Positions 17,835 through 50,200 of a DNA stretch of 64,000 bases are shown piece by piece. Under the pieces are notes generated by a model that ran no database searches, was not told the DNA's origin, and worked only from the letters and a program-made list of their open reading frames with translations. Source of the stretch: Tubiluchus corallicola (lineage: Eukaryota > Animalia > Priapulida); NCBI GenBank assembly GCA_030141605.1, contig JAQGDQ010000218.1:1-64000 (forward strand), written 5' to 3'. The translations under genes and the position numbers were made by a program. Numbering within the stretch: the stretch's first letter is position 1; the number at the start of each line of letters is the position of its first letter.

Positions 17835-20288
17835 TGAAAGGCAAATTTAAAGCTATGTTGGTAAAATTTAGTGGTTGTCATTAGTTATGCATAAAATAAT
17901 AATAATAATGCTTAAAGCATATAATACATGGTCATTAACCATGTGTACATCTATGCATGCAATTTTTGGAAATGATTAATAGTAACAAATAGTTGAAAAT
18001 GAGGTTAGATAATTTTTCAACATTGCTTGATCTGTGCTCTTAATCTTAACTGTATCAGAACTGTTCACTCTTACACATTAGGCGTGTGTCAGACACATGT
18101 TAACTCTTTTACATGCGCAGGCACGCCAAATTTCATTTCTCAGCCATTTCGCAAATTCACACTGAAGTTTGCAAAATCACCTGGCTTCCTTCACCATGCG
18201 TACCAACCAAAACAAAATTAGTAATACTACTGGCAATGATAATGGTAGCTTTTATGAATCTAACTATGTATATTGTACTAAAGAGTTTTAAAATTTAAAA
18301 TTAGTACTTTTGGGTGCTATTGAGCTTTTTTTCATATACAAAAGAATTTATATATACATAGTGCATAGTGAACTGTAATATCAGCATAAGACAGCTCAGT
18401 AGTACTCAAAATTGCCTTAACTTTTTTTATATATTTTGATTTTGGCATGCAAAAATGCCAAAATTTCTGGATTGTTATTTGCCCCTTAGACTCTTTCGGG
18501 GAGCAAGATGATCTTTGGGCTTCCTAAGTCTCACACTCATGGTTGGTTAGTTATAAGTTCTTTGGGAAGTGCTTAAGTGTCAAACAAGCAGGCATGAAAT
18601 CAATATGTAAAATGACTTTTCCAATTAGAGATACTGAATATAAAAGTAACAGCTATAATTATTTGGAAATACCATTTACCAATTACTTTTTTTATACTAT
18701 TTTTTACTATGACTAAGGAAACCCAAATGTAAAATTGTTTTATGTTGTGCTAATTTATTGGAAAATAGGGTGAATTTTAACTTTCTGTTAAGTAAATTTA
18801 CACAGGCTTGGAGACTAAGCTAAATGTAGAGGTTTTTCTCGTTTAAACTAATAGCTTATAAAACATTTGGAACTTAGAAGCACTTTGGTACTGTTTGTAG
18901 ATTTGTGTTTTGAACTTTTTGTGTTCACTATTTTCTTTTAAGATAATTATTGCTAGGAATTTACATATGCTGTTAAGCACGCATTACATTATACCGGCAA
19001 ATTGCGAACAAAAATTGCACGATTTTATTGAGCCATAATTGCACAAATGTAATCAGTAGTTTGCAGATAGGCTTTGTTGTCATCCTTAACTCTTGAGGTA
19101 AACCTAGAGTAATTTAATGCACTGTAATGCTTTTAGGTTTCTGTTATGACACTTGGCATAACATAATTATTGATACACTTGATGTTTTAATGAAGCAACC
19201 TTCATGAAAATGGTTTATAAACTGTTCAAATAGTGCTTGAAACATTTTCCCCATTTATTAAAGCATACAAAGAGAAGTTGATTTTAACTAAAGCAACAAA
19301 TTTTGTTTTTGTTCTTTCTGAAACAAAGTATGGTATCACAGGTATGCATTTATGCACTCTCAGCGGCACATATAAATGATATGCATTTATGCGTGCACCT
19401 TTGTTTTGTCACACAAGTTGATTTTATGGCCAGTTTGCAAACCCTTTATTGCTATGCTAATTGAGAGAATTGTATGCTGTAATTATTGGCTGTGCATTGC
19501 TGATAGGTTGTCGTATCCCCGCTTGCGATGCATTTCATTGCTTGTCAGCTGTATAATGGAGAACTGTGCAAGTGTTAGTTTCAGATTATTGTGAAATCTT
19601 TTTCCAAAAAATTTAGTACAAGATTTATTCATGGCATGAGTACCATCAGATGGAACTAGTGTTTTACACTCATTTGAATGAAAGTCATTGTACATTGTTG
19701 AACTACATGTTGCAGTAATTTGTAGTTTCACTGTATTTATTTACTACAGTTGAACGACATATTATCGAAAGTCTGTTTTGTTAGCTAATTGGTGACATTT
19801 TTGTAGTTGTATGTGTGAAGATCGTCTGAGATTCATTTATAGGGTGTAAACCAGAAGTCGTTTGCTGCCTTTCAGACTTCACAGTTTAAACTTCTTTACT
19901 GTTACTTCACTTGCTGTCACTATTATTGTCATTTTACTTATAAAACAGTGGGTGGAGTCCTGACAGACTACAAAACTATGAGTAGATTCCTCACAGACAA
20001 ATGTATTAATGCTGCATAAATTAAAGGATATCAAGTATAGTTTCTAAACTCCTTATTAGGTGTGAAATGCTTTTTGTGGAATCTCTCCAACTAGTAAAAA
20101 TAACCTTTAAAGGTTTCATGTTTTTTAGTTACTTACCATTTAATAGCCGAAACCACTTTTTTGACTTTGAAACTAATTGCCATTAAATATAAGTACTTCG
20201 AAGTAGACGAATTAGTGCATAAACTGAGGTATAATAAATTGTAAAGATTTAAAATGTTAAGTTTTATTACATTTTTATTGCTTTTCAG

Positions 20289-47200: not shown

Positions 47201-50200
47201 ATCATTGGTGTTTAAACTTATGCTTTTGCGTATATGTAACTCAGTAAGATAGTTTATAGTCTATACCATTTTTATTTGTGGCATATGCAGCACTCCTAAT
47301 GAAGTAATAATTACAAGTAATTCTAGATAAATTAAAAAAACAATTTGTCATCATTCCACAAAAACCTGCAAAACCTCTTTTTCTACCAACTGTCACATAA
47401 CTTATGCATAGGAATTCATTTGCTATCATTATTCGAGGGGGCGGGGTAATGTCACGAAATTTCATCATGTAATTTCAGTATTTGATGGGGTCAACCTGTC
47501 AGATTTTTAATATCACAAATGGAAAGGGTCGTCACCAAATTGCAGTTAATGTGTAAGTTGTAAGGGATCGCATGTTAGAAACTAATTAGCTAGATTGGAA
47601 TATTCTGATTGGTTGAGGGAGGCTGATTACCTCATCAGTGGTCGTGCTCGTAAGTGGTCATTGCATGTAATGTTTCGTGCTATTGTGTGGTCAGTAGATG
47701 TGGTATTGTGTTTACTGCTTATCAGTGACCATATTTTGTTTGTGTAACTTTAGAACATGTCAAAGTTATTTAAGAAAAATCCTAGTACCAATCTTGATCA
47801 TATGCGGAATTACACACTGGTAAGTTGATGAAGTAGGTGTTGAACCATTTTGGTTTTTTTTGGGTTGTTTTTGCAATAGCATAAAAATGAAATGCTATTG
47901 CTTAAAGAAATGCTCCACATTCAGAAATGTTTCACACTCATACGAATAAATTATAGAGTCAGTAAATAGTAGATGATCAAGATTACAAATCATTTCAATA
48001 TTTAAAATGTGTACGTGCTAGATCAATCTTAAATTTGGATTTTGAATGTACACCTCCCACATAATTCTGGAATTTAAGGCTCTCATCATGTCAAGTACCT
48101 ATTTTTAATTTCTCCACCTTATTTTCTCATTTTGTTAAAAACCAATATTTTACATATACCTTATTAATTTCTCTCTGGTCAACTGAAGCAAACTGCATAA
48201 CATATCAGATAGCTTAAAAATTTGTTAGCACGTTTTAAGCATTTCTTTCTTTGTAAAAATTCAATTAACAGAGTAGTGTTCTGTTTTAATAGTTTTAGTC
48301 AGTAGTTATATCAAGTATTGTTGTACACTTTCTTCACAGTATATTTATCTGCATTTGGTATGATAGGGTTATTTTTACAAGATTACGCAAGCCTATTACA
48401 CGAGTTTTGATGCAATTTGCATTTGATATTGATGCAATTTCTTATTTTCACTTTTTTATTACTGTTGTTACAGAAATGTCATTGTACCATTGCCTCTTGT
48501 CTAACACTTGTGTCTTTTTTATGCAGGAGTTGCAGAAACAATGTGAGCAAGCTCAGGAAGAGGCGTTGGGCCTGAAGAGTCGCCTGGAAACTTCAGAAAA
48601 TGAGAGGCGAAATCTGGAGAGACAGGAAAAGGATCTTTCTGTCAGGGTTAATGACATGTATGATTTTACTTTTTGCTTTACTTGAATATTTAATATTCCT
48701 CTTTCCTAATAATACTTTAAAAGTTATCAACATTACTTATCAAAATATTTGTTTGTAAACAGGAAGCGTGATTTGGAAAATACTAAGGAGAAACATCGTA
48801 ATGCTGAGAGAACTGTGGAGATGCTGTCAAGTGAGAAGACTACCCTGGAGACTCTGCGTTCCTCTCTTAATGACCAAGTGGATTCTCTTAACTCTGGTAA
48901 TTAAGTACTTTATAATTAACACATTTTGTAATACATAAAATGAACAACCTGTGTGGCTTTCCTTCAACTATGTATGTAAAGCAGAAATTTTATTTATTTT
49001 TGTGCATGATGACAGTAACTGTGCTAATTATCACAAAAAATGCATAGTGACCATAATCGTACAAAGTTCATTTGTTTGCTTTCGTTTAACTGAAGACTTC
49101 CACACAGAAAGTTTTCACGCGAACAGCTTAAATCACCCATGCCATGCCATGCCATGGTGTAATGCCAATATGCCAATGTCATGTTGTTTTTAATACTATT
49201 TTAACTGTTAACTGCAACAATAGAATTGGTGCAACAAAAATGCAACAGCAAAAATCTCGAAAGCAATAAACATCAAATTTTATAAGATATAATCATCTTG
49301 TACTAGAAACATCAGTACGATAACCTGTATACGACACAATTTTCTTTTTCAGATAATTAAAAACTTATTTTCTTGCAATTTAATCTTATATTAGCCAATT
49401 AAAACATCATATCGTTGAAACGCTGGTTAACTTTGGAATAAGTGGAGGCCAGTAACAAAAGAAAGTAATTTATCTTGCTTGCCATGAAAATTTTCTGTAT
49501 AGTAGGCTTTGTACGTTTAAGATAAAAATTGGTGCAGATGAGAAAATTTTCCTAATTTTATTGGAGAATCTTTCAAAAGAAAAGTTGCACATGTGGTAGG
49601 TGTATGTGATCTTTCTTTACAGTAATGTCATTAGTTTATGCTGTTGAATAATAACTTTGATACTGCTATTGTAAATTTTTGTGTGTAACCACTATGTAAT
49701 ATGGAGTAGTGTTGAGAAGTATTTAAAAAACAACACCCTTAATTAGTGAATTGTTCTTGCAAAATCATAAGGTCATGCTATCCTATCGGCACCGAGACTC
49801 CATTTTAAATTAGCTTTTTTACATTAAAATAAGCCTTAGAAATTGCTCATTTAGCATTTTGGTTTTGCAGAGAACAATAAGTTGCAGATCATGATTGCTG
49901 AGCTACAGAAGGATAAGGAAGCCATGTTAGAGACAAAAGAGGCAGCGCTGCGAGAGCACGAAAGCAAACAACAGCAGCTGGAGAGACTGTAAATAAAATA
50001 CCTTTGATGTCTCTGTCTAAATATGAAACAACATGTTCTGGCTGAGCTTTTTCATCATGGTCTATTTTTTCTCATTATTTGTTGTTGCCCAGTTTTGTGT
50101 ACATTTTTTGTGATTTTATTTTAATTTATAATTACTTACACTGAATTGCTAATTACCTTATTTGTGAATTTATTTCAAATGAAACACATTTTTGCTTGCT

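Follow-up and report, generated by a model that had tools for sequence, protein, structure and literature searches.

A conserved ZAD-like coding exon in an intron of a priapulid rootletin gene, a likely alternative N-terminus

Does a single rootletin gene supply one coiled-coil rod with several different N-termini? Rootletin is the protein of the fibres, the rootlets, that anchor cilia. Rootlets vary widely in shape and attachment across cell types, though a single main protein is believed to make them up, and the question is raised by the rootletin gene of the priapulid Tubiluchus corallicola that lies in the window analysed here, i.e., the 64,000 nucleotides at positions 1 to 64,000 of contig JAQGDQ010000218.1 (assembly GCA_030141605.1). 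An initial annotation of this window proposed that three large introns of the gene each contain an ATG-initiated exon, and that nested promoters yield full-length, short-head, zinc-finger-head and headless forms, up to four heads on one rod. Our analysis points to a known gene with one well-supported ZAD-like exon that is likely to provide an alternative N-terminus; of the other two candidates, one is a plausible start of a headless form and the other is weak.

The rootletin gene and a coding exon in its fifth intron

The host is a real, spliced rootletin gene of the invertebrate type, read on the plus strand from 19330. A model of 24 exons gave 1103 codons without a stop, rich in E, K, Q and L, and stayed open to the window end, where the gene runs off, its C-terminal half lying outside the window. 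The Pfam Rootletin family (PF15035) was passed on two single exons, with 64.5 and 61.9 bits at a cut-off of 36 (E-values of 1.6e-17 and 1.1e-16, in the region of exons 7-12). The exons of the model are:

19330..19341, plus strand: putative first coding exon of full-length rootletin, four codons, with a strong phase-0 donor (second of 246 sites in 17834-20280)
20289..20486, plus strand: coding exon 2, N-terminal region, with AG/GT ends, phase 0 and an open frame
21236..21352, plus strand: coding exon 3, from the gene model
28764..29015, plus strand: exon 4, start of the Pfam Rootletin domain (model positions 1-24, E 0.013), with an X2 joint to 29926
29926..30009, plus strand: exon 5, with X2 joints on both sides
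37461..37588, plus strand: exon 6, with X2 joints and an acceptor score of 6.89
38518..44626, plus strand: exons 7-12 (38518-38683, 39102-39293, 40038-40138, 41782-41878, 42099-42229 and 44482-44626), rest of the Rootletin domain and a Ser/Pro/Arg-rich linker, from PF15035 and the gene model
48527..64000, plus strand: rod exons 13-24, with an open frame to the window end and four X2 joints

X2 is one small sequencing run that behaves as spliced RNA (RNA by guess) of a divergent relative, about 92% identical to the window in exons; it was compared with the window apart from 38900-43800. A second run, X1, behaves as DNA. Contigs of X2 confirmed the constitutive splicing at seven joints of the model, namely 29015-29926, 30009-37461, 37588-38518, 48657-48763, 48896-49871, 49988-50635 and 53351-54047, and one contig has a loose end matching the start of the exon at 39102. 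Among 50 listed exonic differences between the window and X2, 37 were synonymous. X2 did not cover exons 1-3 at 88% likeness or 44482-44626 at 80% likeness, holes that prove nothing. The 300 nt upstream of 19330 contain no CpG, and the promoter of full-length rootletin probably lies further upstream.

The coordinates and phases given in the initial annotation were right. The introns 21353-28763, 30010-37460 and 44627-48526 are all in phase 0, and the candidates 26778-26825, 35779-36525 and 47757-47819 each start with ATG, are stop-free multiples of three, and lead in frame into the next rootletin exon, joining it at residues 110, 222 and 542, respectively. Two of the introns were tested by Markov simulation, and for both of them an ATG-to-GT phase-0 exon of at least 30 nt appeared in 200 of 200 copies, so the candidates needed to be judged one by one; the real introns contain 61, 79 and 41 such GT candidates, in the above order. 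The donor, acceptor and codon matrices used in this judgement were trained on the window (25 donors, 23 acceptors and four coding sequences), and their scores are rough because they rest on few sites.

The candidate in intron 5 and the stretch ahead of it are:

35400..35778, plus strand: CpG-rich stretch, likely an internal promoter and 5' untranslated region (UTR) of the ZAD-like exon, from the CpG count and non-coding score
35779..36525, plus strand: ZAD-like coding exon, 249 codons, likely an alternative first exon joining at residue 222, from its zf-AD match, its relative P0001, codon score and GC donor

Clearly, 35779-36525 is a real coding exon. An ATG frame of at least 249 codons was found in none of 300 simulated introns, the longest simulated one being 161 codons, and the codon score of the exon was +41.7, whereas none of the ten best of 263 null exons exceeded 6.25. 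The cumulative codon score over the open frame 35650-36654 had its minimum at 35778, immediately ahead of the ATG, and its maximum at 36528, one codon beyond the proposed donor, which gives limits of the exon that were obtained independently of the splice hypothesis. Past 36525, the 43 read-through codons scored -29.4, as an intron would, and the T content rose from 0.24 to 0.42.

The donor of this exon is GC, not GT (AAG|GCATGT), which the initial annotation did not mention, and it ranks second among the 740 GT/GC sites of its intron. GC-AG introns are enriched among the first introns of human and mouse genes (PMC7242645; papers are cited here by PMC number and from portions of their texts). 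The best acceptor downstream, in 36526-37470, was that of rootletin at 37461, which matches in phase (its score of 6.89 is that of a site in the training set). No AATAAA or ATTAAA was present in 36526-37460, where 2.3 would be expected, and no C2H2 finger pattern was found in the six frames of the window, in a search that an intron-split finger would escape. Taken together, the segment ending at 36525 is probably spliced onto the rootletin exon at 37461.

The initial annotation placed promoter-like sequence upstream of two of the candidates, and this stood for 35779. The 300 nt before it contain 12 CpG at an intronic median of 3, a count reached by four of 128 intronic tiles, two of which are the ZAD-like exon and its upstream tile, and the open frame ahead of the ATG scored as non-coding (-12.5 over 23 codons). 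In contrast, the 300 nt before 26778 and before 47757 are ordinary, their CpG counts being reached by 57 and 38 of the 128 tiles, respectively. An X-box pattern was not found near any of the candidates.

The ZAD-like domain, its relatives and the joint to rootletin

The product of 35779-36525 consists of a low-complexity, Lys/Ser-rich arm, a C-x2-C ... C-x2-C motif, and a predicted long helix. The best family for it was Pfam zf-AD (PF07776; E 0.004, 17.8 bits), which was also the first match in the atlas, both for the exon (0.87, a lead only) and for its relative P0001 (0.92). The four cysteines of the ZAD type are present (C135, C138, C190 and C193) and are kept in P0001 and in another protein, P0003. 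As the zf-AD score is under the cut-off, we call the domain ZAD-like and do not file it as a member of the family. A ZAD would be expected to have a treble-clef fold with a long helix at its C-terminus; a model of the domain (pLDDT, the predicted local confidence, of 61.5) contained helices at 40-48 and 57-97, its N-terminal part being unresolved. The ZAD of Pita was one of four Foldseek rows, with a non-significant E of 6.9, a VIA fold search gave no match with Z of at least 5, and of two PDB sequence searches one returned nothing and the other a single match with E 1.4.

Among 1.84 billion representatives, P0001 was the one clear relative of the exon (E 2e-21, 42% identity), and it was also the only one of 1196 candidates retained in a search for homologues of near length. 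It is a complete-looking, stop-terminated protein of 156 residues from a single 3.6-kb contig, and it shares with the ZAD-like exon the MASK start and the four cysteines. Moreover, it has K-A in ungapped register with the K|A of the window at the donor, and ends two residues on. K-A occurs once in the 156 residues of P0001 (from the composition, a chance of about 1 in 100), and the GC-donor-like AAG|GCAGGT is one possible coding sequence for K-A-G. The simplest reading is that P0001 would represent the same exon in a second species, read through a conserved AAG|GC donor. In P0003, of 537 residues, a ZAD-like C-x2-C ... C-x2-C unit occurs in four copies, and no part resembles rootletin. Two further proteins, P0002 and P0004, were dropped as low-complexity or repeat matches without the cysteines, and scans of metagenomes for related loci gave 106 and 593 pattern matches, none of which was confirmed.

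These data make it reasonably probable, a little less so than the splice taken alone, that intron 5 of rootletin contains a conserved 249-codon ZAD-like exon with its own promoter and a GC-donor splice to 37461. Of the proposed zinc-finger-head form, the conserved coding exon with its sharp limits and the phase-matched acceptor downstream were borne out, but the joint was not seen in RNA. Several observations speak against such a form. GC donors account for about 0.8% in human and mouse coding genes (PMC7242645), and the acceptor at 36578 (score 5.18) competes with that of rootletin and would end the frame one codon later; the matrices behind these splice-site scores were built from just 25 donors and 23 acceptors of the window. 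The zf-AD scores lie below the gathering score of 28, not only for the exon but also for the domain alone (20.3 bits) and for P0001 (19.2 bits), and the structure models are poor (pLDDT 45 and 62). An X2 contig crosses 30009-37461 unbroken, without a branch at the joint, and none of the alternative joints 26825-28764, 36525-37461 and 47819-48527 occurs in X2 contigs. X2 did not cover the ZAD-like exon at 88% likeness, as it also missed exons 1-3. P0001 is known from its protein only, which does not show its donor or a position in a rootletin gene. The ZAD-like domain was found in none of 1240 candidates among proteins of 437-2000 residues, and no ZAD-rootletin fusion was among the four hits of a 50%-cluster search; a full fusion may exceed 2000 residues or sit hidden in a rootletin cluster.

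The best surviving alternative, which the initial annotation overlooked, is that the ZAD-like exon is a small independent gene on the same strand, nested in the rootletin intron, in which case there would be no zinc-finger rootletin. Such a gene could continue unspliced as far as the stop at 36657, giving 292 codons, or be spliced over 52 nt to a stop. This would fit the 43 codons over which the frame continues beyond the GC site, the acceptor score of 5.18 at 36578, the complete-looking and stop-terminated P0001, the lack of an X2 branch at 37461, and the presence of other single-exon genes in the window. However, the read-through codons are intron-like and unrelated to the end of P0001, an intron of 52 nt would be half as long as the shortest one among the 23 of the gene (105 nt), and no canonical poly(A) signal lies ahead of the next rootletin exon. 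We regard a nested gene as unlikely, though as the least unlikely of the alternatives, and prefer the exon as an alternative start of rootletin.

Two short candidate exons and the remaining alternatives

The other two candidates, and an island upstream of one of them, are:

47754..47819, plus strand: candidate exon with its ATG at 47757, 21 codons, joining at residue 542, from its donor and acceptor
46050..46400, no strand assigned: CpG-rich intronic island, a possible internal promoter or enhancer, 1.4 kb upstream of 47757
26778..26825, plus strand: weak candidate, of 16 codons, for a short alternative first exon that would join at residue 110

The donor at 47819 scored 7.1, the best of the 411 GT/GC sites in its intron, and was equalled in two of 200 simulations, or in nine of 200 when the codon score was added. 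The codon score of 47757-47819 itself is slightly negative (-2.3). The acceptor 3 nt ahead of the ATG scored 2.7, about the median of real acceptors, and 104 nt upstream of this acceptor stands a GTAAGT, with a weak matrix score of 1.3, which would imply a 5' UTR intron of about the gene's minimum of 105 nt. CCAAT and initiator-like words before 47757 occurred near the background rate, and in the island further upstream 46100-46399 contains 15 CpG, the tile of this island tying for the top of the 128 intronic tiles. X2 did not cover 47757-47819 at 80% likeness, again a hole that proves nothing. The exon is quite probably real. It would be the first coding exon of a headless form that has an intron in its 5' UTR, or else an in-frame cassette of 66 nt within the linker; the X2 contig, which begins at 48556, cannot tell these two apart. 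Chances appear even that 47757 is an internal start and its exon the first coding one, giving a headless rod from residue 542.

The cassette was likewise absent from the initial annotation. If the candidates were internal cassette exons, one promoter would serve the gene and no truncated forms would arise: 47754-47819 would lengthen the linker between head and rod by 22 residues, and 35710-36525 would place 272 residues inside the first coiled coil. In each case a phase-0 AG stands upstream (scores of 2.7 and 4.64, respectively) and the length is divisible by three. On the other hand, the 23 codons that separate 35710 from the ATG have a non-coding score and P0001 begins at the same MASK, an ATG as the second codon, with A at -3, would be unlikely in a cassette at 47754, and 26741-26825, of 85 nt, would shift the frame. 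As an account of the candidates, cassettes appear improbable, and internal starts remain our preferred reading.

The donor of the shortest candidate, at 26825, is ordinary: it was equalled in 132 of 200 simulations, and donor and codon score together in ten of 200. The GC content is 0.52 in 26778-26825 vs 0.27 behind it. An X2 contig starts exactly at 28764, as would be expected where two upstream sequences meet, and equally with unspliced RNA; we take it as a weak hint at more than one upstream neighbour of exon 4. X2 did not cover 26778-26825 at 88% likeness, a hole that again proves nothing. The form may be real, with the chances somewhat against it. Another ATG exon of this intron, 26603-26680, has a better donor than 26778-26825 and a negative codon score, and was not preferred.

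A feature spotted after the fact is S-K within residues 2-4 of all three candidates, as compared with 17 of 724 background ATG frames; both short exons begin M-(T)-S-K-L, with eight identical bases in frame. This bears on the possibility that only the ZAD-like exon is real, and that the two short candidates, in AT-rich introns, resemble exons by chance. In its favour, in-phase ATG-to-donor exons arose in 200 of 200 simulated introns, the donor of 26778-26825 is middling, the codon score of 47757-47819 is slightly negative, and neither exon has RNA support in X2 contigs. It fits poorly with the donor at 47819, with its rank and its two equals in 200 simulations, with the shared beginning of the two exons, and with the X2 contig start at 28764, and we consider it about as improbable as the cassettes. 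Finally, although related treble-clef modules stand beside THAP and RAG1-type domains (atlas rows of 0.75-0.81, leads only), it is very improbable that the ZAD-like exon is a functionless, decaying fragment of a transposon or pseudogene, given its intact 249-codon frame, a relative of 42% identity with conserved cysteines, its low X1 depth (1.6-2.3, vs 767-877 on the repeat 30288-31615), and the lack of a flanking inverted-repeat pair among the best 25 of 96 pairs by length.

Surroundings, proposed isoforms and known systems

The window is AT-rich animal DNA, with a GC content of 31-37% per 2 kb and depleted CpG, and besides rootletin it contains a Rab-family gene and two others:

2030-6031, plus strand: Ras-family GTPase gene, spliced (PF00071), presumably resembling Rab9
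7540-8895, minus strand: GDP-fucose protein O-fucosyltransferase, intronless (PF10250, E 8e-48)
16833-17834, plus strand: short-chain dehydrogenase, intronless (PF00106)

Both intronless genes have intron-rich neighbours, and the stop of the dehydrogenase is only 1.5 kb ahead of the first rootletin coding exon. The top CpG island of the window, 8750-9300, lies at the start of the O-fucosyltransferase, and at 9268 there is a good donor on the plus strand. The island may act as a promoter in both directions, its non-coding first exon serving the dehydrogenase at 16833 or rootletin, and a shared leader exon or an operon-like arrangement is possible. Among repeats, decayed reverse-transcriptase fragments occupy 10000-11600 on the minus strand (PF00078 at 11026-11400), and a tandem duplication of 128 nt lies at 29184-29439. 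A miniature inverted-repeat element at 30623-31136 (arms of 32 nt, 91% complementary, spaced by 450 nt) has an X1 depth of about 770-880. Intron 11 contains a simple repeat at 43455-43625, a long (AAT)n and then (AAC)n, and the intronic segment 55245-55854 is matched by divergent, high-depth X2 contigs, probably of a transcribed repeat family. A search of Rfam gave no matches.

What would the candidate exons mean for the protein? The image of four heads on one rod overstates the modularity of the gene, as the joins at residues 110, 222 and 542 describe nested truncations, which differ in how much of the N-terminal coiled coil is lost. Judged by sequence, the ZAD form would lose about the first 50 of the 188 positions of the Pfam Rootletin domain, and the third form would lose all of them. 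The N-terminal "head" is itself now considered a coiled coil and not globular (PMC11623930). A headless form is plausible, whereas the short-head form is barely above chance. The three candidates are all in frame, but that all four proposed isoforms exist is quite unlikely.

If the fusion is made, the first 221 residues of rootletin would be replaced by the predicted zinc-binding, ZAD-like domain, and the rod and most of the Rootletin domain would be kept. Given that, we tentatively favour the following mechanism, with its chances a little below even. The ZAD-headed rod would still dimerise and pack into rootlet or linker fibres, because the rod of mouse rootletin polymerises alone; the N-terminal part of the mouse protein binds kinesin light chain (PMC2173070). 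Newer work describes the N-terminal part as a coiled coil at one striation band and connects it with KLC3 and nesprin-1 (PMC11623930), and fly ZADs homodimerise through a long helix (PMC7913770). At the N-terminal band of the fibre, the ZAD-like domain might then replace the native N-terminus and pair with itself as a new clasp, and in cells that use this promoter the fibres would differ in their cross-links and anchoring partners. The headless form would assemble together with other forms, diluting the heads, and would not build rootlets alone; we propose this because fly Root without residues 1-333 gets to basal bodies and is incorporated into rootlets that already exist, but cannot build them (PMC4621839). 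The picture as a whole is doubtful, namely that an animal lineage grafted a ZAD-like zinc-binding dimerisation domain, familiar mainly from transcription factors of insects, onto the rootlet polymer via an internal promoter and a conserved GC donor, with up to four N-terminal variants giving rootlets of different cross-links and anchors in different ciliated cell types.

The role of the rootletin N-terminus is still argued, as to whether it is a globular head or a coiled coil, as to the striation band, and as to membrane and nuclear links (PMC11623930, PMC4621839). If the series of candidates is true, a natural set of N-terminal replacements would offer a ready-made dissection of this function, and a ZAD-like domain on a centriolar fibre would bring into the cytoskeleton a module that belongs mainly to chromatin proteins. 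Should the truncations alone be real, the locus would illustrate ordinary alternative-promoter use, and should the ZAD-like exon form a nested gene of its own, it would be a minor curiosity.

A zinc-finger- or ZAD-headed rootletin was not found in the literature searched, which covered few subscription papers and no database annotations or supplements, and a ZAD-like exon in rootletin is apparently undescribed so far. PMC8435291, PMC1855351, PMC1555608 and bioRxiv 10.1101/324822 contributed nothing about isoforms. TAX1BP2 lacks the N-terminal part of rootletin, and we know of no domain added to it. It is the human "Rootletin isoform 2" with a centrosomal role of its own, so that a second isoform is known (PMC4926181). 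The gene in the window resembles rootletin/CROCC of mouse and Drosophila Root in that the Pfam Rootletin domain lies close to the N-terminus and precedes a long rod, here probably of the coiled-coil type (PMC2173070, PMC4621839); proteins of the Rootletin/C-Nap1 family have about 2000 residues in all. Its third join, at residue 542, is close to the mouse N-terminal fragment of 533 residues (PMC4621839). A zinc-finger-headed form, which would set it apart, does not appear in the portions of PMC2173070 and PMC4621839 on which we draw.

In its architecture the locus also resembles dystrophin, a long cytoskeletal rod gene whose intronic first exons give nested truncations with short unique N-termini (Dp260/140/116/71; PMC1790709). 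However, the internal first exons of dystrophin add few or no residues (PMC1790709), whereas here a 249-residue arm with a predicted folded domain would be added. The domain itself is similar to the ZAD of arthropod ZAD-C2H2 proteins and of human ZFP276 in its two C-x2-C pairs followed by a long helix, predicted in the case of the exon (PMC7913770, PMC12649048). It differs from them in that the exon is below the Pfam cut-off and is accompanied by no C2H2 array in the window, and in that its likely partner would be a centriolar coiled coil, where in ZAD-C2H2 proteins it is a DNA-binding array.

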